Below are positions 1-44,239 of a stretch of 44,239 bases of DNA, one piece after another. Below the pieces are notes generated by a model. The model saw only the letters and a list, made by a program, of their open reading frames with translations, ran no database searches and was not told where the DNA came from. Position numbers and translations under genes: made by a program. Source of the stretch: a virus; IMG/VR virus record IMGVR_UViG_3300024520_000013, positions 1 through 44,239 of that record. One strand, 5' to 3'. Each line of letters starts with the position of its first letter. Positions within the stretch are counted from its first letter, which is position 1.

Positions 1-127
1 CCAAAGTATGGCCGAAACGGGAACTTCTTCGGATCCTTCGGGAACTTGTCTTCCTCCTTCTTCGGAGTCGGATCCTTCGGGAACTTGTCCTCCTCCTTCT
101 TCGGAGTCGGCTTCTTCTTGCCCTTCT
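1..127. repeat. Terminal overlap copy 1, identical to 44113-44239; marks circular closure or terminal redundancy of a ~44,112-bp unit
   Basis: Read directly: CCAAAGTATGGCCGAAACGG...GGCTTCTTCTTGCCCTTCT occurs at both window ends with no mismatch. Confidence 0.9.
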
Positions 128-164
128 TCTGTTTGTCCTGCGGTGGTACGTCGGTTCCGCTCAT
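1..164 (-). CDS. 5-prime end of the giant virion protein gene; continues across the junction into 44112..37746
   Basis: The minus-strand ATG at 164..162 lies 4 nt after the TAG of the upstream gene (171..169). The frame MSGTDVPPQDKQKKGKKKPTPKKEE... stays open. 164 nt plus 16 nt (44112..44097) makes 60 codons in frame with the TTG listed as start at 44096. Confidence 0.65.
   Translation of the reverse strand, partial: MSGTDVPPQDKQKKGKKKPTPKKEEDKFPKDPTPKKEEDKFPKDPKKFPFRPYF
31..108. repeat. 2 x 39-bp tandem repeat inside the terminal overlap
   Basis: GGATCCTTCGGGAACTTGTC(T/C)TCCTCCTTCTTCGGAGTC at 31-69 and 70-108, one mismatch. On the minus strand it encodes a duplicated 13-aa unit TPKKEEDKFPKDP. 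Confidence 0.85.
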
Positions 165-8157: not shown

Positions 8158-9177
8158 CTAAGCGGCTTGATCCCACCCGCCGGTGCATGCGAGCATGTTG
8201 TCGCACTTGATGCCCGATTCGATCACGCACAGACCCTTCGTCGAATCGCCGTCCTTGGCGATCGGGACGTGGCCGAGACCACGCAGGATCATGCGGTGGA
8301 ACCGCTCGGGCTCGATGACGATGAACGCATCTTCGAAGACCACCGACGTCGGTCCGCCGGTCGCATTCCAGGACACGCTGGTCGTGCCGTCCATGTAGCG
8401 ATCGAGGTTGATCGCGATCTCACCGAAGTCGGACTCGAAGAAGTCGATGGTTTCACCCCACGCCTTCGACGCCACGCTGATGTTTCGCCGACTCGTGCCG
8501 TTAGCGTAAACCATCGCCATGGCCGAGATGATCCGCTTCATCTTCGCGCCGCAAAGCGCGACGGACCCACCGATGTTCATGCCGTTCGTGTAGCCGTTCT
8601 GCAAGATGTCGTGCAGATCGTCGCGCGTCATGTCGGCACCGGAACCGTTCTGGAAAGTCGGCTTGTAGCTGCCGTACGTACCTGTCGCGACGCCGGAGAT
8701 CGGCTCGTCCCAGAACGTCTGCAGACCCCACGCCAGGACACCGGTCGGAATCCGCGCCACTGCGGTAGTGACCTCTGCGGCTTCGTAGCCCCAGTGGTTG
8801 TTGAACTCGGCCTGCTTCATCGTGGCGACCGACTGCTTCCACAACTGGTAGTTGTAGGCATCGTCGTAGCCCGCCTCGGTCACGACACGACGAGTGTCTG
8901 CAACCTGCACGGTGTTGGTGTTGATTCCACAACCGGCTTTCAAACGCACGACCTCCGCACCTGCGGCGTAGGACAGCGTTGCGTTTTCCGCCACCGATGC
9001 AACGGCAGTCGGAGTTGGCAGCTCATCAACTGCCCAGTCAAAGTAGACGTCGTGACACGACTCCTCATCCAGCAAGCTGGTGAGGGGCAGATCGGTCGGC
9101 GTCATGATCGTGATCACGTCCGACAGATCCTCTCGGACCACGGTCGAGTCGTAGGTTGCGCTAAACGTTGCTCCCAT
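8158..9177 (-). CDS. Major capsid protein (HK97 fold)
   Basis: The N-terminal motif VVREDLSDVITIMTPTDLPLTSLL is typical of this capsid family. 339 aa, sitting directly after a scaffold-like gene. Confidence 0.85.
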   Translation of the reverse strand: MGATFSATYDSTVVREDLSDVITIMTPTDLPLTSLLDEESCHDVYFDWAVDELPTPTAVASVAENATLSYAAGAEVVRLKAGCGINTNTVQVADTRRVVTEAGYDDAYNYQLWKQSVATMKQAEFNNHWGYEAAEVTTAVARIPTGVLAWGLQTFWDEPISGVATGTYGSYKPTFQNGSGADMTRDDLHDILQNGYTNGMNIGGSVALCGAKMKRIISAMAMVYANGTSRRNISVASKAWGETIDFFESDFGEIAINLDRYMDGTTSVSWNATGGPTSVVFEDAFIVIEPERFHRMILRGLGHVPIAKDGDSTKGLCVIESGIKCDNMLACTGGWDQAA

Positions 9178-10264: not shown

Positions 10265-10593
10265 GTCTTCTTCTCCTGCGCTTGGAGCGCTCTAGAGATC
10301 TTGTTGAGTTCCTCGTTCACCCGTCTCTCGGATGTCCGCAAGTCCTCGATGATTTCGATCCGGCCAAACACCTTTCCGGCCTTGAACGAATCGAAAGTTT
10401 CTGCGCGGATCATGTCGCGGTAACGCGACTCGTCCGTCTTCGCGCGCGAGTCCAGGAAAGCCTGGAAGTCCTCGTTCTGCATGAAGCGCGCAACACGCGA
10501 GAGCTGCGCGTGCCTGCTGGTCATCGCCGCAGTATTGTCCACCAGCTTCTCTTCGCGCTCGGCGCGTTCGACTTCATCGAGAAACGTGTTCAC
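10261..10593 (-). CDS. Hypothetical protein, helical
   Basis: 110-aa ORF with a 4-nt overlap to the portal gene stop. Confidence 0.55.
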   Translation of the reverse strand: MNTFLDEVERAEREEKLVDNTAAMTSRHAQLSRVARFMQNEDFQAFLDSRAKTDESRYRDMIRAETFDSFKAGKVFGRIEIIEDLRTSERRVNEELNKISRALQAQEKKT

Positions 10594-12911
10594 TGCTGCG
10601 CTCCGTTGGTGTTCTGAAAGATCCCAGGCTGACGATCCATCGATGCCATCTGACCTTGCCCCGCCATACCCGGCGTCTCACCGGGAGTGGATCCTGGTTG
10701 CCCGAACATCGCGCCCTCGCCCGGTTGCACTTGTCCATTCTGCGTACGCTGATTGCCGGTGGTACCTCGGTTCGGATCGAGAGGTTGCTGCGGCTGCGCG
10801 AAGGGCATCTGCTGGTTCTGTTGCTGCTGCTGCTCCTGCTTCCGAGCCGCAGTGCGCTGCTGCTGCAACAGGCTGACGTGCTCTTCGTAGTGCTTCGCGA
10901 GCAGCGCTCGAATCTCCGGGTCGTACTCGTCGATGTTGTCCATCGCAGGCAACATCGCTTCGAGGTGTTCCTCGTGATCGTCCTGATCGTCCACCTCGAC
11001 CTCCTGCCCCTGCAGGATCATGATCAACTCCTCGTTTTGCGTCAGCAGCTCGTGCATCGGAGTTGGAATATGGATCACCTCCTCGCCGCTAATTGCGCCG
11101 ACCATGTCGTCCCACAACAGCCGCGCCATGCGAAGCTGATCGAACGCACCCGGATGCTGCTGCATCATCGGAGCCATCAGGTTCAGGTACTGCATGAGCT
11201 GCGTTGCTCGCAGATCACCGGAGTGGAGCGAACCGAGTGCGGTGAATGTGAAGTCCACCTGGGTCTGCAAGACTTCAGGATCCACTTCCTCGTAGACCTT
11301 GAGACCCTTCGCCCCCTTGCCCAACACGCGGAACTCCATCGAGTTCGTGACGTACTGGGTGTTCATGGCATGCCACTGTTCGAGCATGTCGTTCAGCCCC
11401 ATCGTGTAGGACTGGATGTATGCACGGAGCCGTCGCGACGACTCGGACAACTTGTTCGTTGACTCGGTCGCTGTGTTGCTGTTGTCCACGCCACCGAGCA
11501 CGCGCGTTCCGCCCGACACCTCTTCGATGTCCATCGAGAGGATCGAGTCGGCGTACTGCATCTCGCCCATCGTGGACTTGAGCGAGACTTCACTAATGCC
11601 GCCGGGGTTCGCCACCGGAATGATCGCACCCGGCTCGATCTCCCACAGGTTGCCGGGAAGGTCGTCGGTGTCGGACACGAAGAGGAAAGGCGACAACGCC
11701 AGCTTGTGCGACTTCAAGGCCAGATCGCGGTGCTGGTTCATTTCCAACTGCGGTCGGATGGCGTTGTCGAGGGGCGCGATCGAGAAGAAGTCGAACGCAT
11801 CGCGGTTCGCCCTGGCGCAGGCGTATGGCCTGTGCTTATCGTCGAACGGGTTCTCTTGAATGCGGATGGGAACTTGAAAGTTCGCCACCGTGATCACGCA
11901 CTCGCGCGTGAACCCTTCGTCGTAGAGGTCGAACAAGCCCCAGATCTCGGTGACGTAGAACTCCTTCGGTCCGCCTTTGACCTCCCGGCGTCCGTAGTTG
12001 ATCTCGTGCTGTCCAGTATCCCGATCTTCCTTGTACCACGAATTGTAGTCGTGCCGCTCGATCATCGAGCTGTCGGCCAGTTCCTCCCAATTTTGGAACA
12101 CACCCTCACGACCCATCGAGGCAATCTGGTCGAACGTCATCTTGGTAACGTCACCAACGAACTTCGAGTTCGGCACGTCGGTAGCTTCCATGTCGATGAC
12201 GAAGTCGAATGGATCAACGAGTCGTTGCCTCGGCCCGTTGAACACCACTCGCTCTTCTTCCTTCAGCGACGTCTTCAGCTTTGACTTACCGGCTTCTCGA
12301 ATTCTCCTGTGCGTACGCTTGATGCGCTTCTCGCACTTGGTCTCCCACCACGTCTTGATCGCACAGAACCCGTAGGTCAACATCGTGCGAATCGCGGGCT
12401 GCACCGACATGCGGAAGCGATCCTGTTCGAGCTGCCACGTCAGGAACGCGGTAATCTTCTGGGTCTGCTTCTTGTCGGCATCCTCACGACCGTGCGTCGT
12501 GAACCACTTCTCGTAGGAGAGCACCTGCTCCTCGATGCGCGGGACCATGCGCTCGACAGCTTTGTACATCTCGGCGACCTCGCCTTCGCCTTGCCCTCCC
12601 TTCATCCCGTCCATGAGTCGACGGACTAACGCCCACTTCCGGAACGTGTCGTTGTTCTCCTCTTGGAATCTGCGAAGTGTACTCGTCACAAATTCCGTGG
12701 CTCGCTTGTCGAGCACATCGTTCGTTCCAGCGAGGTTGCGATACGGAACCTGAATCTCGTTCCACGCACGCAACTGATCCGGCGTCGGGTTCGGGGTCAG
12801 CGTGACCGTCTTCGTCTTCGACCTGACGCCCGACTGCGTTGTGGTGGAAGCACCGTCCCCGGAAGGCGCACGCTTCATGACGTTCTCGGCGTTGCCAGTC
12901 TTGACAGTCAT
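10590..12911 (-). CDS. Portal protein candidate with a Q/G-rich C-terminal tail
   Basis: 773 aa, between the terminase and the scaffold/capsid genes. The last ~100 aa are low complexity (QEQQQQQNQQ...GQGQM). Confidence 0.75.
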   Translation of the reverse strand: MTVKTGNAENVMKRAPSGDGASTTTQSGVRSKTKTVTLTPNPTPDQLRAWNEIQVPYRNLAGTNDVLDKRATEFVTSTLRRFQEENNDTFRKWALVRRLMDGMKGGQGEGEVAEMYKAVERMVPRIEEQVLSYEKWFTTHGREDADKKQTQKITAFLTWQLEQDRFRMSVQPAIRTMLTYGFCAIKTWWETKCEKRIKRTHRRIREAGKSKLKTSLKEEERVVFNGPRQRLVDPFDFVIDMEATDVPNSKFVGDVTKMTFDQIASMGREGVFQNWEELADSSMIERHDYNSWYKEDRDTGQHEINYGRREVKGGPKEFYVTEIWGLFDLYDEGFTRECVITVANFQVPIRIQENPFDDKHRPYACARANRDAFDFFSIAPLDNAIRPQLEMNQHRDLALKSHKLALSPFLFVSDTDDLPGNLWEIEPGAIIPVANPGGISEVSLKSTMGEMQYADSILSMDIEEVSGGTRVLGGVDNSNTATESTNKLSESSRRLRAYIQSYTMGLNDMLEQWHAMNTQYVTNSMEFRVLGKGAKGLKVYEEVDPEVLQTQVDFTFTALGSLHSGDLRATQLMQYLNLMAPMMQQHPGAFDQLRMARLLWDDMVGAISGEEVIHIPTPMHELLTQNEELIMILQGQEVEVDDQDDHEEHLEAMLPAMDNIDEYDPEIRALLAKHYEEHVSLLQQQRTAARKQEQQQQQNQQMPFAQPQQPLDPNRGTTGNQRTQNGQVQPGEGAMFGQPGSTPGETPGMAGQGQMASMDRQPGIFQNTNGAQQ

Positions 12912-18602: not shown

Positions 18603-18748
18603 GGCGAAAACCGAAACCTCCTGACACTTTTCCCGTGGCCCCGGCAACGGCTCCCGATGAGCCCGCGAACCACCTTCTTCTTCCCGAAAGCCGGGGCCTC
18701 GGGACCTTTCGCACACCCGTAGTCACTCTCACGGAGAGGGAGGGATGA
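18596..18748 (+). CDS. Possible small ORF bridging two genes
   Basis: A GTG start overlaps the upstream TGA, and the stop overlaps the ATG at 18745 (ATGA). About 50 aa and Pro-rich, so weak. Confidence 0.2.
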   Translation: MVRRKPKPPDTFPVAPATAPDEPANHLLLPESRGLGTFRTPVVTLTEREG

Positions 18749-19191
18749 GTCTCGTGCTGCAACCGCTCAACCTGGATGAGGCGAAGCTCTTCGTCAAGCG
18801 CCACCATCGCCACCATGAGCCGCCGCTGTCTCACAAGTTCTCGATCGGTGTGAACGACGGAGAGACTGTTCGCGGCGTAATCATCATCGGGCGCCCAGTG
18901 TCGCGAGTTCTTGACAACGGTTGGACGGTTGAAGTAACCCGGTGCTGCACTGATGGCGCGAAGAACGCCGCGTCAATGCTCTATGCGGCAGCGTGGCGCG
19001 CAGCTCGATCAATGGGTTACCGAAGACTCATCACCTACACGCTCGCGACTGAGCCCGGGACGTCCCTGATCGCCGCGGGATTCCGCGTGTTGTACAAGAC
19101 CAAACCCAATCGGTCGTGGAACGCTCCAGGCCGACCACGGGTCGACAAGCACCCACTCGGCGCAAAGCTGCTATGGGAGAGGGAGGCTTGA
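18745..19191 (+). CDS. XF1762-family protein (GNAT-like fold)
   Basis: FVKRHHRHHEPP..HKFSIGV...IIGRPVSRVLDNGWTVEVTRCCTDG..NAASMLYAAAWRAARSMGYRRLITYTL matches my memory of this prophage family. Confidence 0.65.
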   Translation: MSLVLQPLNLDEAKLFVKRHHRHHEPPLSHKFSIGVNDGETVRGVIIIGRPVSRVLDNGWTVEVTRCCTDGAKNAASMLYAAAWRAARSMGYRRLITYTLATEPGTSLIAAGFRVLYKTKPNRSWNAPGRPRVDKHPLGAKLLWEREA

Positions 19192-19197
19192 ACGACC

Positions 19198-19389
19198 TTG
19201 CTGACCCCGGCTGAGTACGAAAGTACAGGATACCCCGAGCTCGGATGCTGCGAGGAACGGCTGCGGTTGCTCGCCGACAAACTCCGCCTCACCAGGGAGG
19301 TGGCTTCCCTCACGCGGCTGTACGGACTCCTGAAACTCCAGGTTGAACTCATTTACTCGGAGAAGGATGACATCACGAAGGACAACTGA
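19198..19389 (+). CDS. Hypothetical small protein
   Basis: 63-aa ORF with a TTG start, helical. Confidence 0.4.
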   Translation: MLTPAEYESTGYPELGCCEERLRLLADKLRLTREVASLTRLYGLLKLQVELIYSEKDDITKDN

Positions 19390-19404: not shown

Positions 19405-20076
19405 TTGACGACGATCTATCTATCAAGCCCCGGATCCCAATTGCGAGCGGACTACTGCCGGAACCTTCCGGTGCTCATGTCGTTCGGGGTCTACCGGAAG
19501 GTCGGATGGGTGGAGAAGTACGTCCCGTCGTTCTCAGGTCTGCTCATCGATTCGGGAGCTTACTCCGTCCTGACCACCGGGACTGAGATCAACGTGGACG
19601 AGTTCGCCGAGTGGGCGCAGAGATTCCCGCACGCAGATGCGGTGGCGGCACTGGATGACATCTCGGGGGACTGGGAGCAGGGACTCCGCAACTGGGAAGC
19701 GCATCCGTGGATGTTCCCTACGTTTCACGACACCGACCCTTGGGAAGCTCTCGCCGGTATCTTGGAGAAACATCCCAAGTGGATCGGGCTTGGAATGAAA
19801 CCGCCGAGAACGTCTGCACGATGGCTAGACGAGACTCTGGAACGGATACCAGATCAAATCCACATCCACGGGTGGGAGTTGCGAGCGTTCACGGATCGCC
19901 ACCGCATCGACTCGTTCGACTCAACCAACTGGTTCCGCGACTCATGGGCGGTCAAGAACGCATATCCCTGGCTAACCCCTGCCGAGTCCTTGGAGATCAT
20001 CGTCAAGCGATACCAGCGCGAACACCGAATCATCAAAACAAGGAGCACAACGCCATGTCTGTTCGATACCCAGTGA
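19405..20076 (+). CDS. dpdA: DpdA-like (TGT-family) DNA transglycosylase candidate
   Basis: LLIDSGAYSV and IDSFDSTNWFR resemble the two catalytic-Asp motifs of TGT/DpdA. There is no Zn-site cysteine cluster. The gene overlaps queE by 22 nt. TTG start per the ORF track. Confidence 0.55.
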   Translation: MTTIYLSSPGSQLRADYCRNLPVLMSFGVYRKVGWVEKYVPSFSGLLIDSGAYSVLTTGTEINVDEFAEWAQRFPHADAVAALDDISGDWEQGLRNWEAHPWMFPTFHDTDPWEALAGILEKHPKWIGLGMKPPRTSARWLDETLERIPDQIHIHGWELRAFTDRHRIDSFDSTNWFRDSWAVKNAYPWLTPAESLEIIVKRYQREHRIIKTRSTTPCLFDTQ

Positions 20077-20666
20077 ACGAGATCTTCTTCTCGATCCAAG
20101 GCGAAGCGCACTTGCGCGGCTTCCAGATGGCATTCCTTCGCCTAGCCGGTTGCTCGGTCGGATGCCCAGAATGCGACACAAACTACGCGGCAAAGTCCAC
20201 CCACGATGCGCGAGACCTATCCTTCCGAGTTCTGGAGGAGATTCCCTCATCAGTCAAGGACAGGTGGGTGTGGATCACCGGAGGAGAACCCACCGATCAC
20301 GATTTGGTCCCGCTGATTCGCGAACTTCGCGCCCGTGGATTGTCGGTCGCCGTCGCCACCGCTGGGCACAAGCGGTTCACCCCAACGGTTGACTGGTTGT
20401 CTGTCTCACCTCACAAGGCTGAAGACTTCTCCCAACGCTACGGACACGAGATCAAACTAGTAGACGGACTCCACGGGCTTGACCTCGACGAGTTCGTTGG
20501 CGAACACCGCGACGGATACACCGACTTCTGGTACCGCTACGTGCAACCGCTGTCGGTGGACGGGGTGGAGCAACCCGACAGTCTGGCCCGATGCATGGAC
20601 TTCCTTGACCGGCACCCGAATTGGGCGCTCTCCCGTCAAGACCATCTCGCTATAGGAGTGCGCTGA
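20055..20666 (+). CDS. queE: 7-carboxy-7-deazaguanine synthase QueE (radical SAM)
   Basis: The ATG at 20055 follows AAGGAG. Signature elements are NEIFFSIQGEA, LAGCSVGCPECDTNY, ITGGEP, SVSPHK, YVQPLS and a C-terminal WALSRQDHLAIGVR. The longer ORF-track start at 19707 is a spurious extension. Confidence 0.9.
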   Translation: MSVRYPVNEIFFSIQGEAHLRGFQMAFLRLAGCSVGCPECDTNYAAKSTHDARDLSFRVLEEIPSSVKDRWVWITGGEPTDHDLVPLIRELRARGLSVAVATAGHKRFTPTVDWLSVSPHKAEDFSQRYGHEIKLVDGLHGLDLDEFVGEHRDGYTDFWYRYVQPLSVDGVEQPDSLARCMDFLDRHPNWALSRQDHLAIGVR

Positions 20667-21087: not shown

Positions 21088-21355
21088 CCTGACAACCGGG
21101 CTCGACCACAAAGCCACACCAAACTACGGCAACGGCAAGTGGGTGTTGGCCTCCGATGCCTTCGCTTGGGTCGACGAACTCACCGCAGACATCGCGCACC
21201 TGCAGCACGAGGTGGACGCGGTGAAGGCAGACTACGAGCGTGCCACCTACCGCTCCTACCAAGACCGTCCCTTCATCTGCGTCAGACCTACGCCACTAAA
21301 GCTGGCAGCAGATTCGGAACGTGCGCAAGGTGAGGGCCCCACGAAAGATACATAG
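21065..21355 (+). CDS. Hypothetical protein
   Basis: Internal ATG at 21065 (MDRYDLTDL), 96 aa, overlapping the previous gene by 23 nt. Confidence 0.5.
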   Translation: MDRYDLTDLTTGLDHKATPNYGNGKWVLASDAFAWVDELTADIAHLQHEVDAVKADYERATYRSYQDRPFICVRPTPLKLAADSERAQGEGPTKDT

Positions 21356-21406
21356 GATAGGGGGCCCCATTGGTCGCTCCCCCCTTGCTCAAATCGGCAT
21401 TTTTTC

Positions 21407-21416
21407 CTCGATCTGG
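21407..21416. promoter_or_regulatory. Variant of the recurrent motif (CTCGATCTGG)
   Basis: Sits at the start of the 633-bp non-coding region, just after a T6 run. Confidence 0.4.
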
Positions 21417-21541
21417 GCGTGGCGGGACGGATCCAGTATCCTGTGCGCCATTCGATCCTAATCCCTTCGCGTAGTGTGGGTTATGTCGGTGGTTCGATAC
21501 CCTTGGGACCGTTGCAAGGGACCAATTGACGAGATGGCAGT

Positions 21542-21582
21542 ACGTGGCAGCTACGTGGCAGCGACGTGGCACTTACGTGGCA
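21542..21582. repeat. Four ACGTGGCA iterons with an exact 11-bp period, plus one degenerate copy upstream
   Basis: Copies begin at 21542, 21553, 21564 and 21575. AGATGGCA at 21532 is a 6/8 match. Confidence 0.85.
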
Positions 21583-21690
21583 GCTATAACAAGGGAAGCG
21601 GACTAGACTAACGTGCTTTGTTAGGGTGTTCGTGGCACTTGCCAGAAATATAGACACACCACACCGTGTTTCCGTATGCACGTTTCTGTG

Positions 21691-21706
21691 GTGTAAGCGC
21701 TTACAC
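21691..21706. repeat. Perfect 16-bp palindrome GTGTAAGCGCTTACAC
   Basis: Read directly. It is preceded by ACACCACA...TGTGGTGT, an 8-bp inverted repeat with a ~23-nt spacer. Confidence 0.85.
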
Positions 21707-21732
21707 GAATCGCCTATACGGGTCTGTACGTA

Positions 21733-21768
21733 CTGTACATGCCATGTACAGTACAAGTACAAGTACAA
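21733..21768. repeat. 9-bp inverted repeat CTGTACATG-c-CATGTACAG followed by (GTACAA)x3
   Basis: Read directly. There are seven GTAC tetramers within ~45 bp, and this is the most AT-rich patch of the region. Confidence 0.85.
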
Positions 21769-21814
21769 GCCCCGTGGGTATGGGCAATTAGGCGTTCTGG
21801 CCGAGTGCCACGAA

Positions 21815-21847
21815 CCCGCCACCATCCCGCCACCATCCCGCCACGAT
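21815..21847. repeat. Three tandem 11-bp units CCCGCCACCAT (third copy CCCGCCACGAT)
   Basis: Read directly; period 11 bp. Confidence 0.8.
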
Positions 21848-21988
21848 TGCGCCATTCGAGACCATCCGTTCGCACCCTTCGCGACGTTTGCCGGTTGACA
21901 AGCTCTTGCCACCGATCGCGCTGTTGGTCGAGAATGTCGGCAATGGACGCGAACCACATCTGGTGAGTGCCACAACCTACGAAACCGA

Positions 21989-22213
21989 ATGAACCGAAAC
22001 CAACGAGACGAGCCCGTTACGGATCGCCCTCTGCCAGGGCGAATCTACTCACTTACCGGCGGCCCCGGTGTCCCTTGCATCGCGAACGGCGATAGCTGGC
22101 GCGAGTCCGATCTCGGCGACGCCGACGAATTCCACGCAAACGAACGTGCAAAAGTTCTCGCACGCCGAGCTGAAAAGGACGCACGACGTCACATACGCGA
22201 GGAGGGAATCTAG
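21989..22213 (+). CDS. Hypothetical protein
   Basis: 74-aa ORF, the first gene after the iteron region. Confidence 0.45.
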   Translation: MNRNQRDEPVTDRPLPGRIYSLTGGPGVPCIANGDSWRESDLGDADEFHANERAKVLARRAEKDARRHIREEGI

Positions 22214-22931: not shown

Positions 22932-23120
22932 ATGAATAGCTTTGCCCGGATGCAGGGTCTGCTGAAGGATGCGAACGGCGCACCCTACGCGCCCACATCG
23001 GCCGAGCTTGACGCGATCGCCGAACGACATTTGGTCACGGTACGCGAACGGGCCGAGCTTGCCAACGGACAAGGGGTGCTACCCGGTCCCGGTTTCGTCA
23101 AGGGTGGCGACGATGGCTAG
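22932..23120 (+). CDS. Hypothetical small protein
   Basis: ATG at 22932 preceded by AGGAGGA; 62 aa. Confidence 0.45.
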   Translation: MNSFARMQGLLKDANGAPYAPTSAELDAIAERHLVTVRERAELANGQGVLPGPGFVKGGDDG

Positions 23121-23802
23121 ACTCGGAATCGTTCTGTACCGGGGTCCGTCAAAATTCTCCGGCGAGACCATCGAAGCTATCGCAACGGAAAGCGAGAACA
23201 AGAAAACGCGCGGAATGCTGGTCATACACATTCTGCCGACGATCGACGTTGCGAAAGCGGACCGACCGCACCTATCGGTATGTCCGTCCGACTGCCCGTT
23301 TCACAAAGCGTGTTATGTGAACTGGTCACAGTCCCCGCCGATGGTGCAACGATGGCATAGTGGAAAACCCGTCTGGACACCGCGCGCGGTTCGCGACGTT
23401 GCGCGCGGTCGATCGATTCGCATCGGCGCGGAAGGTGATCCATGTGCAGTTCCCGTTGGCGTCTGGCGAAACGTGTTGTCGGATTGCGCATCCTGGACGT
23501 CCTATACGCATGCATGGCGCGATGGTCGCAACCGCTACTATCGCCCCTTCTCAATGGCTAGCGTCGAATCACCAGCGCAAGCTCTCGAAGCGATAGCGAA
23601 AGGGTGGCGAACCTACCGAGTCCGACCGCGCGATACCGAGACGATGGCGGGAGAGATTGACTGCCCATCGTCGCGCGGTGTTCTGTGCGCATCATGCGGA
23701 TTGTGCAAGGGCGAACACGAAACCGCCCCGACGATTTCGATACCGGCGCACGGTGGCGCGGTGTCCGCTCGTGAGGCGAACCGTATCGCGCTTGCCGTCT
23801 AG
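23113..23802 (+). CDS. Cys-rich hypothetical protein
   Basis: ATG at 23113 (MARLGIVLY), overlapping the upstream stop. 229 aa with scattered Cys (CPSDCPFHKACY, GDPCAVP, CPSSRGVLCASCGLC). Confidence 0.55.
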   Translation: MARLGIVLYRGPSKFSGETIEAIATESENKKTRGMLVIHILPTIDVAKADRPHLSVCPSDCPFHKACYVNWSQSPPMVQRWHSGKPVWTPRAVRDVARGRSIRIGAEGDPCAVPVGVWRNVLSDCASWTSYTHAWRDGRNRYYRPFSMASVESPAQALEAIAKGWRTYRVRPRDTETMAGEIDCPSSRGVLCASCGLCKGEHETAPTISIPAHGGAVSAREANRIALAV

Positions 23803-33173: not shown

Positions 33174-33437
33174 TGGGACCAATCCCTGGGACCAATCTTG
33201 GTCCCAGGCGGCGCGTTTGGTCCCAAATGGGAACCTGACCGAAAACGCGCTACGTGACCTCTCGCTGCCGCCGACGACGTCGACAGCCCGATTTGCTCAC
33301 TGGTCCCACATCCCCGCTGTGCGGATTTAGGATCCTGTGAGTATAAAAACTCTTGCGGGTTCAAGTCCCGCCTCTCGCACCACTTAGCTCGCTGGGCCGC
33401 AGCCGCACTAGCCTGTGGGACCATTTTGTGGGACCAA
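33174..33437. mobile_element. attP: seven TGGGACCA arm-type sites flanking a tRNA-derived core
   Basis: Direct copies at 33174, 33187, 33416 and 33429. Inverted copies (TGGTCCCA) at 33199, 33218 and 33301. Copies 2 and 3 form TGGGACCAA-tc-TTGGTCCCA. Confidence 0.75.
33355..33382 (+). other. tRNA 3-prime fragment (T-arm, acceptor strand and ACCA) serving as the attP core
   Basis: GCGGG-TTCAAGT-CCCGC-CTCTCGC-A-CCA. The upstream 17 nt cannot fold into an anticodon arm, so this is a fragment and not a full gene. Confidence 0.8.
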
Positions 33438-33466
33438 ACAGGCCAAATCGTGGTAGTGTCCTGGGC

Positions 33467-34519
33467 ATGCCTACGAGAAAGAAGCTTCCCACTGGTGTCG
33501 TCCAACACGGCGACAAGTTCCGCTACCGCATCACGATCGACGGCAAACGCCGGAACTCGTCGTGCTTCGGTACTCCCGAGCAAGCTGCCCTGGCACGCTC
33601 GGAAGCCACCGGTCTGGCGAAGGCTCGACCGGCCAAACGGGCGACCCTGCAGGACGGGTTCGACCGGGTGATCGACCGTGGCGGCATCCGCCCCGGCACC
33701 CTCGAATTCTACCAGGACGTCTTCGCCAAGATCGTGAAGATCATCCCCGCCGACACCGGTCTGCTCGCCATCGCCGAGCCGAAGCTCCTGGCGTTCCTGA
33801 AGCGTCGCGAGAACGAGACCGGCATCCCGACGATCGTCAAGGAGCTGGTCATGCTCGGGCGGATCTTCAACGTCTGCGTCGAGGACGGGCTCGTCGAAAC
33901 CAACCCGGTCAGACCATTCCGAGCGAAGTACCGGAACCGGCTGAAGACCCGGAAGAAGGATCCCCGGTGGGTCAGCCTGGGGGAGTTCGAGGAGGTCTTC
34001 GCCAGGATGGCTGAATGGGCCCCTGTGAAGCGTCACGCGAACCGGTGCGGAGATCTCGCCGTGGACGTGCTCGTCCCGCAGATTCTCTTCTGCACCGGTC
34101 TGAGGCGCGCTGAACTGGGTAGGCTCAAGGTCAAGGACATCGACCTCGCCGATGGCGTGATCTACCCCGAAGGCAAGTGCAGCGACGCGACCGTCGCGAT
34201 CCCGAAGCGTCTGCGCCCCTACCTCGTCGCACACCTCAAGACGCTGAAGCCGAACGAGTTCATCGTCCCGCAGCGGAAGGGCGACAGGGACGGTGCCGCT
34301 GTGCGTCGCGTCTTCCAGCGCTGGCAGCAGCGACTCCAGATCGACTGGACGCCGCACGCGCTGCGCCACGGGCTTGGTAGCCTCCTGGCCGCGCAGGGTG
34401 CGAACACGAAGACGATCATGCGTGCGCTGCGCCATGAGACACCGGAAATGAGCCTGCACTACCAGTCCATGACGGACGAGTCCGTGCGGAACGCAGTAGA
34501 CGACGCTCTCGCCGGGTAG
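33467..34519 (+). CDS. int: Tyrosine integrase
   Basis: ATG at 33467 (MPTRKKLPTG). Catalytic landmarks TGLRRAEL, HALRHGLGS and LRHETPEMSLHY. The longer ORF-track start runs through the tRNA fragment. Confidence 0.95.
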   Translation: MPTRKKLPTGVVQHGDKFRYRITIDGKRRNSSCFGTPEQAALARSEATGLAKARPAKRATLQDGFDRVIDRGGIRPGTLEFYQDVFAKIVKIIPADTGLLAIAEPKLLAFLKRRENETGIPTIVKELVMLGRIFNVCVEDGLVETNPVRPFRAKYRNRLKTRKKDPRWVSLGEFEEVFARMAEWAPVKRHANRCGDLAVDVLVPQILFCTGLRRAELGRLKVKDIDLADGVIYPEGKCSDATVAIPKRLRPYLVAHLKTLKPNEFIVPQRKGDRDGAAVRRVFQRWQQRLQIDWTPHALRHGLGSLLAAQGANTKTIMRALRHETPEMSLHYQSMTDESVRNAVDDALAG

Positions 34520-34521
34520 TC

Positions 34522-34779
34522 TCACGCGCCCTTCCTCTTGGCGCGGCGACGCGCCTCGCCCTCGATCTCGCGCCAAGTGCGGTCGTTCTCTTCAGGGCTG
34601 ACCGCAATCGTGTTCTCCTCGATGAACCGGTGAACGAGATCCTTCCGGAAGAACCACTTCGCGCCGACTCTCAGTCGCGGGACGAACTTGCCCCGCTGGA
34701 CGAGATTCTTGAGCGCATCCCTCGACATCGGTAGCAAGTCGAGCACTTGGTCGAGAGAGTAGTGTTCCGGTGTGCCCAT
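34522..34779 (-). CDS. xis: Excisionase-family HTH DNA-binding protein
   Basis: YSLDQVLDLLPMSRDALKNLVQRGKFVPRLRVGAKWFFRKDLVHRFI. Convergent with int, 2 nt apart. Confidence 0.75.
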   Translation of the reverse strand: MGTPEHYSLDQVLDLLPMSRDALKNLVQRGKFVPRLRVGAKWFFRKDLVHRFIEENTIAVSPEENDRTWREIEGEARRRAKRKGA

Positions 34780-37745: not shown

Positions 37746-40700
37746 CTACTTCACCTTCTCGGCCTTGCGGTGCTTGGCGGACTTGACGTCGCGACTCTTC
37801 TGAATTTGATCCTCGATCCCCTGCAATTCCTTGCTGATCTGCAGGAACTTCCAGCCAGCGGTGAACTGGTTGTGCTCTTCCAGCATCGAGTCTGCGAGCT
37901 TCGTGACTGCCGCCAGAGAGAACGTCTTCTCGTTACTCGTCCACCCCTCGTACCGCTTCGTCAGAGTTTGTTTCATGTCGCGCCGCGTGACACCGAGTCG
38001 GTTGAGTGCTCGCGCCGCCTTCTTCAACGGATGCTGATTCGCATCACCTGCCTTCCACTCCTTGAGCTTCGCCTTCAGATCTTCGGCACTGTCCGCACTG
38101 GTCAGCGCGTTCCACATCTGATCGTAGTAGCGCTCTCGCGCCGCCGACATCGCTTGCGTCCAGGCCTTGTGCGGATTCGTGTTGGTGTAGATCGCTTCGC
38201 GAGCACGACGCTTGAGCCTGTCTGAGTCGGGCTTCTCCGATGGCTTGAGGAATCCAGGGATGACCCCTGACAACCACGTTCGGATGTTGTGCTGCAGACC
38301 AGGTACGTTGTAGTGACCCGATGCCGCCTTGTGCAGCGAGTCCTCGAAGTGCTCGCGCACGTAGTGCGGACGCTTGGCCCTGCTCAACGGCAGCGTGCCC
38401 CACCACGAGTTGCCGCCGGTCCAGAGCGGCAAGAACGTCTTGCCCGCCGCAGCGACCCGCTCGGGAATTCCACTTTCGCCACGACCCTCGGCCTTCACCC
38501 ACTCGGGCTTGATGCCGATCTGAGAGTGAATCAGGCCACTCTGCTCCGCGATCATCCGCACCATTGGCGCCGCCTTGCTGAACCACGTCTGGTGCCACCT
38601 GTCGATCCAGTGCCCGACCTCGTGGTACTGCTTGCCGAGCATCACGTACAACTCTTGTCCGGTCTCCTCATCGTACCCGATGAAGATGTGCCCCTCCTTG
38701 CCCTCCGTGTTGTTCCACCACGCATAGCTCGGCATGAACAGCCCGCTCTCCTGCGCGCTCTTCGCTGCCGCCATGCCTTCCTTCGACTCGGGTCCGTGGG
38801 TCTTCAGCCACTTCTTCTTGTCGTCGTCGGACAGCGACTCGATGAGCGCATACTGCAGAGCGGTGTTGACCGCGATCTGCATGAAGGCGACGCGAGCGAA
38901 GTAGGCACGGGCGTTGTGACTCGTCTCAACCAGCTCGCCCTTCAAGTGCTCGGGCATCTCTTCGCCACGCAACTTGTAGCCAATCTCCTTCACCTTCCGG
39001 CCACCGGCGGCGAGCGGTTCGCCTGCCACACCCCACATGGCGCGACCAGCGATCTTCAAGTTCGAGATCGTCCAGTCCGGTGAGAGCATACCCCACTGCA
39101 GGAACCGCAACCGACTCTCGCTCATGCGCCACGCAGTCTCCCAAGCTTGACCACCAAACGCATCGTTGACGAACGACGCCGCCTTGCGCTTGAGTCGTGC
39201 GCGACCATCAGCGGTGCGAGCACGCTCGGGATACCGGATCTCCAACTCGGTCGAGATTCGGTTGTAGGCGTCGAGCTTCGCGTAGGTGTGAATGTGGTCC
39301 CACAGGATTTTGTCGGTGCCGTGCTTGATGGTCTTCGCGATATCGGTGAACTGCTTGAGACCGACCCCCTTGATGCTGCCGATCTTGCCGAGTGCCGTGA
39401 GCAGATCGAACACCGCATTGTGATCGATGTCAGACGTGACACCAATCTTCAGGTTGTGCATCACCGCATCCTCGGCGATCTTCGTCTTCAGCATCAACCG
39501 ACGACCTTCGAGGAAGTTCGCAACCGGGTTCAGCTTGCCACCGGAGAAGAACGCTGACTCGAAGCCGACCGCGACGGCGTGGAAACCGGAGAGCGACAGT
39601 TCCATCGACTTCTGCACACCACCGAGTGCTTTCGCGAACCTGAAGATGTTGTCCTTCGTCGGGTTCGACATCACCTTTCCGAGCGGACCCTTGCCTTCCG
39701 CTGGTCGAATGCCCGTGCCCTCGATCAGATCGCGATGGACGATGTACTTCTCGATCTTCGGCGAACCCTTGTGCGTGTAGGTGAACGCATTGCCTCCCTC
39801 GAACTCGACGTACTGACCCGACTGCATGGCAAGCTTGCCCATCTTGCTGTCGGTGGTCATCATCGCGCGGAACGACTTGACCGGCTTGATCTTCGCGAGA
39901 TCTTGGCGGTACTTCTCCAGCCTCGCACGCGCATCCGTGTACCGAGGATTCGGTTCGCTCCCCTTTACAACGTCAACTGCCTGGACCTTTGGAAGCTCAC
40001 GCTTCAACCAGTGGTTGACTGCATCAATCGCCTCGCTTTTGGATTTACCAGCATCGACAAATCGCTCCGTGCCTTGCACTCCCGGCTCGATGAGAAGATC
40101 GCTCGTCTTGCGATCCAGCACCCACTTATCACCGGACTGCTGAATTCGAAACCGTTTGCCACCGACTTCAGCATTCCAGCCGTTGCCGGTCTCAACGAAA
40201 TCCGACTCTGCAAGCTCACGTCCTCGGGGAGACTCCAACCACTCCTTCCCGACAATCTGTCGTGTCTCCGGAGTCTCGCCAAGTTCGCGCTCTAGATCGG
40301 CGATCTCCCGTTTCAACCATGCGCGCCGTCCACCTGGAGGTTGCTTCTTCTTGTTCTTACCCGGTGATGCTGGCTCGGGTGTGTACGGATCGAATCCTTC
40401 CGGCAGCTTGAACTCCACACGCATCAGGTCGCCGACCAGACGACGGTTCGCCTGGATGGTCCCGTGCTGCGTTTCGTACAGTTCCAAGATCCGGTGAAGC
40501 TGCTGCTCACGCGGAATCAGATCGTGTTCGCGGATGCCTTCCGCCAAGGAAGCGATCTTGCGCTCCTTCGTGAACTTGTCCTTCTGTGCAAACCGTGCGG
40601 TTGACCATGACCTCGCACGCTTCGTCGAGCCCGGTGATCCTGCGAGATCCCAGATGTGCGTGACGTACTCGTCGATAAAGCGTTCGGCGGTGAGTTGCCC

Positions 40701-43700
40701 CGACTCGACCTTCTCCTTGAACATCTTGTTGAACACCGGACGAATCTCTTCGAGCAACTCGTGCGACCACGCGCCCGCTTTCTTGTGCAGACGCTTCATC
40801 ACGTCCGGTAGCTGGTCGATCAGGTCAGACCCCGCGTGCTCTTCGATCAGCTTGTCGATCTCCTCGATCTTCTTCTTCGCAGCTACCTTGCTAGCCTCGT
40901 CAAGGCCTTCCATCTCCTTGACCAGCTCGAATCGCTGCTGCTGCATGTTCTTCTTGACGCGCAACCACTCCTTGCGGCTCTTGTCGTGACGCGGGTTGCC
41001 CGTGCCTTCAAGTGCGAATGCCAGCTCTTCGAGTGAAGCCTTGTCCACCAGCTTCGTCACCGGATCACGGAAGCGCTCCTTCAACTTGTTCGAACGGATC
41101 TTCGCCTTCATGCGAACCAGTTCGACCTCGCCAGCCCACTGCGCCACGCGATCACGACCCACCTGCTCCTCGACGGATGTTGTCTCACCGGTGAAGGCTC
41201 GCATGAGTGCGCTTTGCCGTCCACCGGATCGCTCAACGTGCTTCTCTGCTGACGCGAATGTTGCTCCCTGATCACCCGCCTTCGGATCGTGAAGGACTTC
41301 CGTTTCACCACGAGCTGCTTGCTCGGTGCGCAGTGTGTCCATCTCGCGGAACACTTCGCCGACACGCTCGATCTCCTTGTCCGTGAGTCGCTCCCCCTCG
41401 GGAAGATCACGGTTGCGCACACGCATCCAGTACTTCCACTCCGGTGTGGACCCTCCCGGATCGCGTTTCGGCTTGTCGGTGAGCGGAGGTTTCTGCGACT
41501 CCGTCATCTTCGTTTCGCCTTCGAGCGGAGCAGCGTACTCCTTGCCCAAGACACTGAGGCGCGGCTCGGTCATCAACACCTGCAGCGCAGCCTCTTCCTT
41601 CGGGTTCAGCTCCTCCTTAAGTTCGCGTGCTCTAACACGAGCGTGTTCCTGACGGGACTCCTCCTGTTTGATCTCTAGTTCCGCACGGCCACGCACCTCC
41701 GCGATCTGCATGGCTTCCGCCAGGATCGGGACCGACTGAACCTGTCCCGACAAAGCCTTGCCCATCGCGCGGATCCAGTCGCCGCGAGCTTCTGCTGTCT
41801 TGAGGTTACCCACGAACTCCAACAGCATCGGGTTCGGCTGCGAGAATCCCGGAGCCCTGGGATCTTGCGGCGAAGGTTCCTGATCACCACGGATCGCGTC
41901 ATAGAACTCCTTGACGAAGGGGTCGTCGTAACGGTGGCGACCGAGCACGTTGAGCGCGGAGCGCAACACGTTCGCGTCACCCTTGTTCAGCGATTCGTTC
42001 CCGAGCTGGTGCTGCTTCAGCCAGTCACCCCAGATGCGAGCGAACGGTTGCACCGAATCCTCGATGTGGTGCATCTCCATCTCGGCGGGAACTTCGTGCC
42101 ACTCCTTCCACTTGGCGTTCTTCTCCAGCCCCTTCCGCATCGCTCGACCGCGAGAGATCGAGTAGTAGCCATGCATCGGATGGAACCATGTCCCATCTGC
42201 CGCTTCCGTCCATCCAAGCCTGCCGAACTCGGCGGGGTCGATGTCCAACACGCGGTTCTGCAATGCATCTACAAGCGACTCGGCGTTGATGCGCTCGACG
42301 AGTCGCTGCGCTTCCTCACCGGAGTAGGCGCGCTTCTCGATGTCGTACTGCTTCGACATGCGCGACGACGGTCGCAGGATGTATCCCTCGTCCGTTGCCT
42401 CCAGACTGAACCGACCACGACCAGGATGGCGGAACGTGGACGTGTTGCCCTTCGTCGAGACCTTCCAGTTGTTCAGCGACAGATCGATGATCGGCTGCGC
42501 CTGATCGCGATGCGGAAGCTCCAACGCTTCGAGAGCCTTGCCGACCTCGGTGTGCGGTTCGCGCAGCATGCGCGCCTGACTCGGGAGCAATCCCTTCGCT
42601 GCGGCCATGCCGACAGCAGTGCCGAACAGTTGCTGCCAACCCTCCTTGATCTTCTCGAAGTCGGGCTTGTCCTTGTTGTACTCCTGCAGCATCGGCCACC
42701 ACGTATGCCAGTCGAGTGCGGCAAACCCGGTGCCCTCGGTCAACCCCGCCAGCATGCGCGCAGACACCTGCGGGAAGTCCATCTTCAGCAGACCCTGCAT
42801 CTGCTTCTCCCCGATCTTGCCCAGCGCGAAGTAGAACGGTGCGAGTGCGGTCGAAATACCGGCATCAAGGATTCGCTCCTCGATGCCACCTGGACCTTCG
42901 GGAGCTGCGAGTCCTGAGTAGATGCCAAATGCGAGAGCCTTGTTCGGCTGCAAGAGTCTACGCATCGTCTGCCGGATCTTCGGCTCGTGCCGAATCATGT
43001 CCATCGTCGCACGCAGCGCAACGTCACGCGAGTTGATCGCGGCGAGTTGCGCGGGACCGAGCCCCATCGCACGTCCGATAGCCTGCGTCCGAGAGCGAAT
43101 GTACTTCTGACCGAGCATACCGACGCTCTTCTCGATCTTCGCAATCGCCCCGGCAGGGCCACCGGTGATGAACCCGACCATGTGTCCGGTACCACGCGCA
43201 CCTGCACGGGTCCACTGCCAGTGAGTGCCTGCCTTCTCCTCGACCTTGACCCGCCACTCGTCGAACCGCTTGCGACGTTCGAGAGCTTCAGCGATCTCTT
43301 CTTCGAGCGTGCCGTCCTGGCCCGCCTTCGACAACCACGTCAGGAAGCCATCAATCCGGTGCGCTGGTCGCTCGACCATTTGAACACGGTCGAGTTGCGG
43401 CACCAGATCTTCGATCTCAGCATCACCGAACAGCAATCGGTAGCCACCTCCGACAAGCGAGTCCGAAGTGCGCCACCACTTCATGTCCTTCGCGCCCCGA
43501 TCCAGGCCATCCGCAACCCAGTTGTGAATGTTCGCGATCAGGGAAATGATGCTCCCCTCTCCGTATCCTTCGACACCTTCGACGCCAACCGTCATGGCAT
43601 CGCTGACCCAACCCGTCATGAGCTGCTTCACGCTCGGATCTTTCGACCCGTAGTACAACTCGTTGCGCTCGTCGTGCCAGTTGTTCACCCAGTTGTAGAT

Positions 43701-44239
43701 CTTGCGCGTGAGTGTGAACCCCCACGGTCGCGGTGGCATGATCTTCTTCTTACGCAAGTCGTCGAAGTACGGCTTCGCGAAGATGTAGTCGTCGTGCTGC
43801 TGCGACGTCATCTTGGCAAGAGCGTCTTGCTCCCACTTCTGAGTCGGACGGTGCCCACCACGATTCCACTGGTTCGTCGCCAGTGTGCCGCCCTCGAAGT
43901 TGTATTCCGCCACCCCGGTGGTTGGCGGGAACTCCGAAGGCTTCGTAAAGTCGATCGACTCCTCTTCCTTCTTCGGGAACAACTCCGAACCACCAGGATC
44001 ATCGGGGAAGCGACGTGGCGGCTCCGCGTACTCGGTCCGTCTGCCTGCGTTGTCCGCGTGCGCTTTCAGCGTGCCGCCACTGAACGTGTAGTCCAACGCA
44101 TCGCCACCACTACCAAAGTATGGCCGAAACGGGAACTTCTTCGGATCCTTCGGGAACTTGTCTTCCTCCTTCTTCGGAGTCGGATCCTTCGGGAACTTGT
44201 CCTCCTCCTTCTTCGGAGTCGGCTTCTTCTTGCCCTTCT
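37746..44239 (-). CDS. Giant virion-internal/ejection-type protein, ~2,176 aa once joined across the junction (T7 gp16-like position)
   Basis: The ORF track gives 2,116 aa from a TTG at 44096, but the frame is open upstream to the window end. It is the last gene of the late operon, after three internal-protein candidates. I could read no catalytic motif. Confidence 0.8.
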   Translation of the reverse strand, partial: KGKKKPTPKKEEDKFPKDPTPKKEEDKFPKDPKKFPFRPYFGSGGDALDYTFSGGTLKAHADNAGRRTEYAEPPRRFPDDPGGSELFPKKEEESIDFTKPSEFPPTTGVAEYNFEGGTLATNQWNRGGHRPTQKWEQDALAKMTSQQHDDYIFAKPYFDDLRKKKIMPPRPWGFTLTRKIYNWVNNWHDERNELYYGSKDPSVKQLMTGWVSDAMTVGVEGVEGYGEGSIISLIANIHNWVADGLDRGAKDMKWWRTSDSLVGGGYRLLFGDAEIEDLVPQLDRVQMVERPAHRIDGFLTWLSKAGQDGTLEEEIAEALERRKRFDEWRVKVEEKAGTHWQWTRAGARGTGHMVGFITGGPAGAIAKIEKSVGMLGQKYIRSRTQAIGRAMGLGPAQLAAINSRDVALRATMDMIRHEPKIRQTMRRLLQPNKALAFGIYSGLAAPEGPGGIEERILDAGISTALAPFYFALGKIGEKQMQGLLKMDFPQVSARMLAGLTEGTGFAALDWHTWWPMLQEYNKDKPDFEKIKEGWQQLFGTAVGMAAAKGLLPSQARMLREPHTEVGKALEALELPHRDQAQPIIDLSLNNWKVSTKGNTSTFRHPGRGRFSLEATDEGYILRPSSRMSKQYDIEKRAYSGEEAQRLVERINAESLVDALQNRVLDIDPAEFGRLGWTEAADGTWFHPMHGYYSISRGRAMRKGLEKNAKWKEWHEVPAEMEMHHIEDSVQPFARIWGDWLKQHQLGNESLNKGDANVLRSALNVLGRHRYDDPFVKEFYDAIRGDQEPSPQDPRAPGFSQPNPMLLEFVGNLKTAEARGDWIRAMGKALSGQVQSVPILAEAMQIAEVRGRAELEIKQEESRQEHARVRARELKEELNPKEEAALQVLMTEPRLSVLGKEYAAPLEGETKMTESQKPPLTDKPKRDPGGSTPEWKYWMRVRNRDLPEGERLTDKEIERVGEVFREMDTLRTEQAARGETEVLHDPKAGDQGATFASAEKHVERSGGRQSALMRAFTGETTSVEEQVGRDRVAQWAGEVELVRMKAKIRSNKLKERFRDPVTKLVDKASLEELAFALEGTGNPRHDKSRKEWLRVKKNMQQQRFELVKEMEGLDEASKVAAKKKIEEIDKLIEEHAGSDLIDQLPDVMKRLHKKAGAWSHELLEEIRPVFNKMFKEKVESGQLTAERFIDEYVTHIWDLAGSPGSTKRARSWSTARFAQKDKFTKERKIASLAEGIREHDLIPREQQLHRILELYETQHGTIQANRRLVGDLMRVEFKLPEGFDPYTPEPASPGKNKKKQPPGGRRAWLKREIADLERELGETPETRQIVGKEWLESPRGRELAESDFVETGNGWNAEVGGKRFRIQQSGDKWVLDRKTSDLLIEPGVQGTERFVDAGKSKSEAIDAVNHWLKRELPKVQAVDVVKGSEPNPRYTDARARLEKYRQDLAKIKPVKSFRAMMTTDSKMGKLAMQSGQYVEFEGGNAFTYTHKGSPKIEKYIVHRDLIEGTGIRPAEGKGPLGKVMSNPTKDNIFRFAKALGGVQKSMELSLSGFHAVAVGFESAFFSGGKLNPVANFLEGRRLMLKTKIAEDAVMHNLKIGVTSDIDHNAVFDLLTALGKIGSIKGVGLKQFTDIAKTIKHGTDKILWDHIHTYAKLDAYNRISTELEIRYPERARTADGRARLKRKAASFVNDAFGGQAWETAWRMSESRLRFLQWGMLSPDWTISNLKIAGRAMWGVAGEPLAAGGRKVKEIGYKLRGEEMPEHLKGELVETSHNARAYFARVAFMQIAVNTALQYALIESLSDDDKKKWLKTHGPESKEGMAAAKSAQESGLFMPSYAWWNNTEGKEGHIFIGYDEETGQELYVMLGKQYHEVGHWIDRWHQTWFSKAAPMVRMIAEQSGLIHSQIGIKPEWVKAEGRGESGIPERVAAAGKTFLPLWTGGNSWWGTLPLSRAKRPHYVREHFEDSLHKAASGHYNVPGLQHNIRTWLSGVIPGFLKPSEKPDSDRLKRRAREAIYTNTNPHKAWTQAMSAARERYYDQMWNALTSADSAEDLKAKLKEWKAGDANQHPLKKAARALNRLGVTRRDMKQTLTKRYEGWTSNEKTFSLAAVTKLADSMLEEHNQFTAGWKFLQISKELQGIEDQIQKSRDVKSAKHRKAEKVK
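44113..44239. repeat. Terminal overlap copy 2, identical to 1-127
   Basis: Same 127 nt as the window start. Confidence 0.9.

Follow-up and report, generated by a model that had tools for sequence, protein, structure and literature searches.

The subject of this analysis is a pair of overlapping genes in a viral DNA of 44,239 nucleotides (IMG/VR record IMGVR_UViG_3300024520_000013, positions 1 to 44,239), hereafter called the window, by which the whole stretch analysed is meant. The first gene (19405..20076, plus strand) opens with a TTG start codon and encodes a 223-amino-acid (aa) protein that we assign, on the evidence given below, as a minimal DpdA-type DNA guanine transglycosylase, and the second (20055..20666, plus strand) encodes a 203-aa radical-SAM (S-adenosylmethionine) enzyme, the 7-carboxy-7-deazaguanine (CDG) synthase QueE. 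Among viruses, DpdA is taken as the marker gene of DNA that carries 7-deazaguanines. Both open reading frames (ORFs), their overlap of 22 nt and their diagnostic motifs were found as described in a first-pass annotation, which had proposed a minimal DNA-modification module. A Shine-Dalgarno sequence for QueE (AAGGAG, 20041..20046, plus strand) was read 9 nt before its ATG, within the 3' end of the DpdA gene, an arrangement that suggests translational coupling of the two genes, and the gene order of the module is identical across several independent assemblies (L010-L012).

The TTG start of the DpdA gene is backed by a conserved N-terminus of the form M.VYLxSP..Q, the first 24 residues aligning with 62 homologues; automatic gene calls place the start 24 codons later, at M25, which gives a protein of 199 aa. 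No obvious Shine-Dalgarno sequence precedes the TTG, and a small ORF of 63 aa and unknown function (19198..19389, plus strand) lies directly upstream in the same frame, separated from the DpdA gene by its TGA and five codons. The in-frame ORF and the missing Shine-Dalgarno sequence together suggest that DpdA is translated by re-initiation or coupling. The 63-aa ORF itself gave no PHROG or Pfam match, has no counterpart in L021, the closest relative of the locus, and is not conserved in other relatives.

In profile searches the 223-aa protein matched PHROG 887 (phrog_887, E 1.3e-11) and PHROG 7068 (E 2.6e-6), both named 'queuine tRNA-ribosyltransferase', and annotated phage DpdAs matched it in tblastn at 24-35% identity. 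Searches of Pfam and NCBIfam returned no match, the tRNA-guanine transglycosylase (TGT) family PF01702 included, a negative that is uninformative because annotated phage DpdAs miss Pfam TGT too, namely the accepted DpdAs of CRB2, Dp-1 and RHph_X3_2 and the DpdA3 of phiST. Comparison of the family profile with individual enzymes using hhalign gave a probability of 98% for the DpdAs of CRB2 (E 1.8e-13) and RHph_X3_2 (E 1.6e-13), and of 94.9% for the genetically validated DpdA of CAjan (E 4.6e-8). When the family profile (A1) was widened with distant relatives, the resulting bridging profile (A3) had a sole significant match among PDB sequences, the DNA-guanine transglycosylase of Salmonella Montevideo (7UI4, E 3.6e-7), in an alignment that pairs DSGAF with DCGAF and SvDST with SIDST. 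Membership in two other DpdA types was considered and rejected: for DpdA3, hhalign of A1 against phiST CGPG_00065 returned a probability of 0.1% (E 0.5) and tblastn with the 223-aa protein yielded no Cellulophaga or Campylobacter phage match, and for DpdA4, the archaeal virus type (DUF6610), PF20314 was not matched at E values up to 1.

An AlphaFold2 model computed from the family alignment, with a predicted local distance difference test score (pLDDT) of 91.7 and a predicted template modelling score (pTM) of 0.86, has eight strands alternating with helices; as modelled, the 223-aa protein is a complete small (beta/alpha)8 TIM barrel. Its top matches in BFVD, a collection of predicted viral structures, were a 223-aa family member followed by phage DpdAs, among them that of Arthrobacter phage Mufasa8 (E 1e-10, TM 0.74), with further matches in Microbacterium phage Megan, a mycobacteriophage and the DpdA2 of Vibrio phage nt-1 (E 3e-5). 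The DpdA-like identity put forward in the first-pass annotation is therefore borne out by profile similarity to CAjan DpdA and, through the bridging profile, to 7UI4, as well as by a predicted TIM barrel whose closest counterparts are predicted phage DpdA structures. Judged by these comparisons, the protein is a DpdA-type guanine transglycosylase, for which exchange activity on DNA is predicted.

The residues expected of such an enzyme are conserved. The two characteristic motifs are LLIDSGAYS at residues 46-54 and FDSTNW at 171-176, and in an alignment of 63 clade sequences D49, S50, G51, A52, D84, H108, H155, D172 and S173 are invariant, with position 53 being Y or F throughout. In 7UI4 the counterpart of D49 and Y53 is the DCGAF motif and that of D172 is SIDSTT, and the corresponding motifs of the CAjan and CRB2 DpdAs align as well; the spacing of 35 residues between D49 and D84 equals that between Asp95 and Asp130 of Salmonella DpdA, so that D84 matches Asp130. 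In the Salmonella enzyme Asp95 is the general acid/base, Phe99 the gate and Asp256 the nucleophile, and both aspartates are essential by mutagenesis (PMC10164549). Putative roles in the 223-aa protein are those of a general acid/base for D49, an aromatic gate for Y53, base binding for D84 and the nucleophile for D172. The only cysteines are C18 and C217, neither of them conserved in the 63-sequence alignment, and the zinc-site cysteines are missing, as had been noted before. Both Ins8 and the CXCX2CX22H zinc site are absent, helix 8 directly following strand 8 in the model, as are the ~90-120 C-terminal residues found in DpdA1-type phage enzymes. Loss of the site is not distinctive for the 223-aa protein, because the phage DpdAs of CRB2, Dp-1 and RHph_X3_2 likewise have no CxCxxC motif, and to judge from these sequences the zinc site is a mark of bacterial DpdA and TGT, not of phage DpdAs.

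The assignment of the second gene as QueE appears secure on sequence grounds and agrees with the initial reading. The protein carries EIFFSIQGE at residues 9-17 (Q15-G16-E17), the cluster motif C33-x3-C37-x2-C40 followed by DTNY at 41-44, ITGGEP at 74-79 (G76-G77-E78), SPHK, and LSRQDH at 192-197. TIGR04508 matched over its full length (E 2.4e-29) with 102.7 bits, which is below the curated cut-off of 240, and the top five places in NCBIfam were all taken by QueE models; PHROG 2076 (phrog_2076, 'QueE-like radical SAM domain') matched at E 1e-21. All PDB sequence matches were QueE enzymes, namely those of E. coli (6NHL, E 8e-20), B. multivorans (4NJG, E 2e-17) and B. subtilis (5TGS), and in the alignment to 4NJG, which covers residues 3-200, the cluster cysteines, QGE, GGE and LSxQxH all align.

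QueE is the sole synthesis gene of the phage; the complete phage set for 7-cyano-7-deazaguanine (preQ0), FolE-QueD-QueE-QueC together with DpdA, is not encoded. PHROG and Pfam scans of the window's gene set revealed no QueC, PTPS/QueD, GTP cyclohydrolase, QueF or precursor transporter, and a six-frame hmmsearch of the window for QueC, QueD, FolE and QueF gave best E values of 0.5 or worse. The six-frame profiles had been built from three sequences each, taken from phages with complete pathways (RHph_X3_2, CRB2 and Dp-1), and the positive controls in the same run were recovered at E 7e-65 (QueE) and 2e-106 (DpdA). A DpdB-like gene was not found in the window either. The absence of QueC, QueD and FolE, already remarked upon in the first-pass annotation, is genuine because the window represents the full genome in circularly permuted form: sequences of 44,133, 44,239 and 44,253 nt were assembled independently and differ in where the circle is opened, and an ORF of 2176 aa that spans both window ends (37746-44239 joined to 1-164, minus strand) is uninterrupted in assemblies L013 and L016. 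This giant protein had no match in PHROG or Pfam.

The locus had been taken for an unusual, stripped-down system, an impression that the survey of its relatives corrects. A database search recovered at least 399 clusters (90% identity) of homologues of ~220-230 aa, all unnamed and none with a Pfam domain. Among 1.84 billion cluster representatives searched with the profile, a tight short clade of 44 clusters (50% identity) stood out at E 1e-30 or better. Relaxing the threshold enlarges the set without a sharp boundary, to 595 clusters (E <=1e-10) and 3250 (E <=1e-3); the relatives added in this way are longer (250-330 aa), and their match stops near query residue 180-190. By tblastn, no clade member of at least 40% identity was present in 50,697 GenBank phage records, no PHROG family is dedicated to the short clade, and we found no paper describing it. 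In the genome collection a single family match was obtained, on a 10.5-kb contig of a metagenome-assembled genome (MAG) of Blastocatellia. As far as these sequences tell, the 223-aa protein belongs to a populous, metagenome-only clade of ~225-aa DpdAs that are bare barrels with the catalytic aspartates and without Ins8 or the zinc site.

Gene neighbourhoods were surveyed at 52 loci from IMG/VR, metagenomes and one MAG, representing 47 distinct DpdA sequences, over ~10 kb on each side. QueE alone accompanies DpdA at 13 of the 47 distinct loci, the window included, and is joined by QueD at six, by QueC at five and by both at one; QueC alone or QueD alone occurs at three loci each, no pathway gene lies nearby at 16, and FolE is found at none in any combination. 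Some of the loci counted as having no gene or a single gene are contigs that end close to the DpdA gene. In total, QueE is present at 25 loci, QueD at 10, QueC at nine and FolE at none, and QueE, QueC or QueD adjoins DpdA at 31 of the 47. Partial gene sets are thus normal in the clade, and the QueE-only arrangement recurs as the commonest non-empty pattern, with flanks of 2.5 kb or more in both directions at nine of its 13 loci. DpdA and QueE were seen in both orders, DpdA->QueE and QueE->DpdA, with the genes always abutting. All-against-all ORF clustering within 4 kb on either side revealed no other recurring partner, the remaining clusters being shadow ORFs or coming from close relatives. 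Replacement of QueD by DpdL in the relatives was considered and rejected, as the QueD-like neighbours examined retain the catalytic Cys of CxxxHGH.

In the closest relative (L021), whose DpdA is 73% and whose QueE is 86% identical to those of the window, QueC follows directly after QueE. Because the window and L021 have DpdA and QueE alone in common over ~10-20 kb, the pair behaves as a horizontally mobile cassette. The pathway gene content changes rapidly between near-identical DpdAs: those of L032, with QueC, QueD and QueE, and of L026, with no pathway gene within ~9 kb on either side, are 88% identical. The slot next to DpdA is occupied by QueC or QueD in L021 (11199-11804), L004 (10663-11277) and L007 (9007-9411), and the QueC of L004 stands beside a Lar-like restriction-alleviation gene. 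In appearance the relatives' loci are small anti-restriction islands whose genes can be exchanged for one another.

The account that we favour, with somewhat better than even confidence, is that the host supplies 6-carboxy-tetrahydropterin (CPH4) and QueC, that the phage boosts the radical-SAM step, and that DpdA inserts preQ0 into phage DNA as a protection against restriction. During infection, host FolE and QueD would make CPH4, which phage QueE, working alongside host QueE, would convert into CDG, thereby raising flux at the slow radical-SAM step. Host QueC would then convert CDG into preQ0, and phage DpdA would exchange G for preQ0 in phage DNA after replication, with D172 acting as the nucleophile and D49 as the general acid/base. 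A minor share of 7-amido-7-deazaguanine (ADG) or CDG may also enter the DNA, and the modified phage DNA would resist host restriction. The host contribution, the nature of the inserted base, DNA as opposed to RNA as the target and the anti-restriction role are all steps that we infer. Precedents exist: the dpdA of CAjan is essential both for dPreQ0 and for restriction resistance, and phages encoding DpdA alone in hosts that make preQ0 are known (PMC6884629). Where the phage contributes no synthesis gene, its DpdA has only the host pool to rely on, which argues for a single substrate throughout the clade; most likely this is preQ0, either taken from the host's pathway or finished by it. The simplest reading of the variable gene content is that phages add whichever steps raise flux.

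Several observations weigh against this account. The FolE, QueD and QueC of the host are postulated, the inserted base is predicted, and nothing accounts for QueE in particular being limiting. Ins8, which forms much of the DNA-binding surface in bacterial DpdA (PMC10164549), is missing, so that DNA binding by a bare barrel has to be assumed. The family profile A1, taken alone, found nothing among PDB sequences, and the fold search of the PDB returned generic TIM barrels only (TM ~0.5), with no TGT or DpdA among the top 50. Furthermore, insertion of CDG by a DpdA2 has been recorded in an E. coli strain devoid of queC (PMC10516641, Table 2), and additional QueE might therefore result in CDG as its deoxynucleoside (dCDG) in DNA as well.

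This last point leads to the second of the two readings offered in the first-pass annotation, in which the short DpdA would insert CDG itself, whether through preference or promiscuity, and produce dCDG DNA, phage QueE flooding the cell with CDG and QueC being unneeded. The genome does have no QueC, and QueE is the clade's most frequent partner; dCDG is natural in STSV-2, DpdA3 phages end their synthesis at CDG, and there is the case of the DpdA2 that inserted CDG when queC was missing from E. coli (PMC10516641). However, in L021, the closest relative, QueC stands right behind QueE, and the nine family loci with QueC, three of them without QueE, make it clear that many members work downstream of CDG. 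No active-site residue distinguishes DpdAs at QueC-bearing loci from those at QueE-only loci: the two sets differ at peripheral positions alone, in a comparison that is confounded by phylogeny. Moreover, the host must still provide CPH4 and a host with QueD normally has QueC, and there is no detectable similarity to DpdA3. We therefore consider direct CDG insertion unlikely, and the comparative evidence, as far as sequences can speak to it, favours the other of the two readings, host dependence. A more far-reaching version, which we regard as distinctly unlikely, is that the bare-barrel clade, having neither Ins8 nor the zinc site nor a partner ATPase, constitutes a new DpdA subfamily whose QueE-only members write dCDG into DNA. 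If dCDG insertion were true, these abundant uncultured temperate phages would provide the first case of bacterial viruses modified mainly with dCDG, and the clade, as such a subfamily, would define the smallest known DNA base-exchange enzyme.

We assign only a small likelihood to a third explanation, that the cassette leaves phage DNA unmodified and either tops up host precursors of queuosine (Q) in tRNA, acts on RNA, or stays idle because its host lacks the pathway, as with the mycobacteriophage Orion. Phages with preQ0 genes have been proposed to boost Q in tRNA, and Orion, which has DpdA only, carries no modification (PMC6884629); the short protein also has no Ins8 DNA-binding module. Against this, catalytic residues that are invariant in at least 63 diverged sequences of a large clade imply selection for activity, the fact that DpdA and QueE occur closely paired again and again, in either order, points to one pathway, and the phage DpdAs tested so far all act on DNA. 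The protein is equally without Ins3 and Ins8, which TGT uses for tRNA binding.

Upstream of the cassette, a gene at 18745..19191 (plus strand) encodes a Mom-like putative DNA-modification protein of 148 aa and of the GCN5-related N-acetyltransferase (GNAT) type (phrog_1384, E 1.2e-36). The Pfam Mom model PF25680 matched it at E 1e-4 with 22.4 bits against a cut-off of 27.1, over the first ~109 of 202 model positions; the protein is 58% identical to gp66 of Burkholderia phage phi1026b, and its family is labelled 'acetyltransferase' in M. abscessus prophages. The idea that this acyltransferase decorates the inserted deazaguanine to give a further, undescribed derivative draws on its position ~200 nt ahead of the DpdA gene, on the same strand and within one compact block of genes, and on the methyl and formyl groups with which phages decorate dPreQ1 (PMC10516641), and it is highly improbable, given that none of the other 46 family loci has the gene, that the 148-aa family is widespread in phages showing no DpdA match in this search, and that there is no QueF to make the amine for acylation. 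The Mom-like gene probably serves a second, independent modification and does not count among the conserved components of the cassette, and from its sequence the phage may carry two different DNA-modification functions side by side.

The phage itself is probably temperate. A tyrosine integrase gene (33353-34519, with a likely start near 33467) stands beside a tRNA 3'-end fragment (33355-33383, plus strand) just upstream, comprising the T-arm, acceptor strand and CCA (GCGGGTTCAAGTCCCGCCTCTCGCACCA), and an excisionase-like helix-turn-helix gene follows at 34522-34779 (minus strand). The fragment is probably the core of attP in a temperate phage whose integration target is a tRNA gene, and it could serve for locating the host. 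The genes at 8158-9177 and 10590-12911, both on the minus strand, encode a major capsid protein and a portal protein of SU10 (Kuravirus-like) type (PF17236, E 7e-47; PF23899). A search with the module region found no near-identical DNA in the 50,697 GenBank phage records. Neither tRNA genes nor riboswitches or other RNA families were found in the window, and a promoter and terminator scan of the window gave a result not above the shuffled expectation.

Downstream of the cassette, an ORF-poor region of ~700 bp (21355-22068) contains three short tandem arrays: 4.8 copies of the 11-nt unit TGGCAGCTACG at 21535-21586, four copies of GTACAA at 21746-21769, and 3.5 copies of GCCACCATCCC at 21807-21844. 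The arrays are iteron-like in sequence, and the region may be a replication origin or a regulatory region. At 22969-23802 (plus strand) lies the gene of a cysteine-rich 277-aa protein; it matches phrog_2554 (E 2e-47), a family of unknown function, with a weak second match to DUF7227. In L023 a homologue (E 8e-19) was observed ~6 kb from a short DpdA.

These results bear on the detection of deazaguanine phages as well as on their biochemistry. Surveys undercount such phages, since the search of GenBank phage records yielded no clade member at >=40% identity, PHROG has no family dedicated to the clade, and Pfam fails to detect it. The 223-aa barrel shows how far the enzyme can shrink, with the catalytic residues kept and the bacterial DNA-binding module lost, and it represents a useful minimal scaffold for the study or engineering of DNA base exchange. 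The mix-and-match pattern of the clade, in which QueE is followed in frequency by QueC and QueD at similar levels and FolE never appears, shows which host steps phages supplement, and QueE as a bottleneck is a directly testable idea.

Among the known systems, the DpdA1 enzymes of phages (CAjan and the Mycobacterium phages Rosebush and CRB2; PMC6884629) are like the window protein in having a barrel that is homologous up to the nucleophile motif, in sharing the DSGA[FY]S and (S/C)DS motifs, in adjoining QueE and in their expected role, the post-replicative exchange of G for preQ0 against restriction. The window protein differs in its length of 223 aa compared with 306-329 aa, ending ~50 residues past the nucleophile with the C-terminal region missing. 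The bacterial Dpd-system DpdA (7UI4; PMC10164549) likewise has a TIM barrel in which the motifs of the general acid/base and nucleophile aspartates align, whereas it is ~410 aa long, carries Ins1, Ins2, Ins3, Ins8 and the CXCX2CX22H zinc site, and needs the DpdB ATPase; the window protein has neither zinc site nor Ins8 and no room for the other insertions.

The DpdA3 systems of Cellulophaga phage phiST and Campylobacter phage CP220 (PMC10516641) also combine a short DpdA (259 aa) with QueE in the absence of QueC, and CDG has been discussed as the base inserted. In contrast to the window, these phages also encode FolE and QueD, DpdL being present or not, and their G is replaced completely; the DpdA of phiST has no detectable similarity to that of the window. 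In pathway content the closest comparison is with the group 3 phages, which have DpdA only, and with Mycobacterium phage Bipper, which lacks only QueC (PMC6884629): here, too, the pathway is partial and the rest is presumed to come from the host. Unlike these, the window retains QueE alone, a combination that was not singled out in the 2019 grouping, and its DpdA comes from a different, shorter clade. With 76 phages known to have DpdA only, and with Bipper, phiST and the Campylobacter phages being without QueC (PMC6884629, PMC10516641), partial pathways are known in principle; what is new is a populous, metagenome-only clade of minimal DpdAs in which QueE alone is the commonest non-empty pattern.

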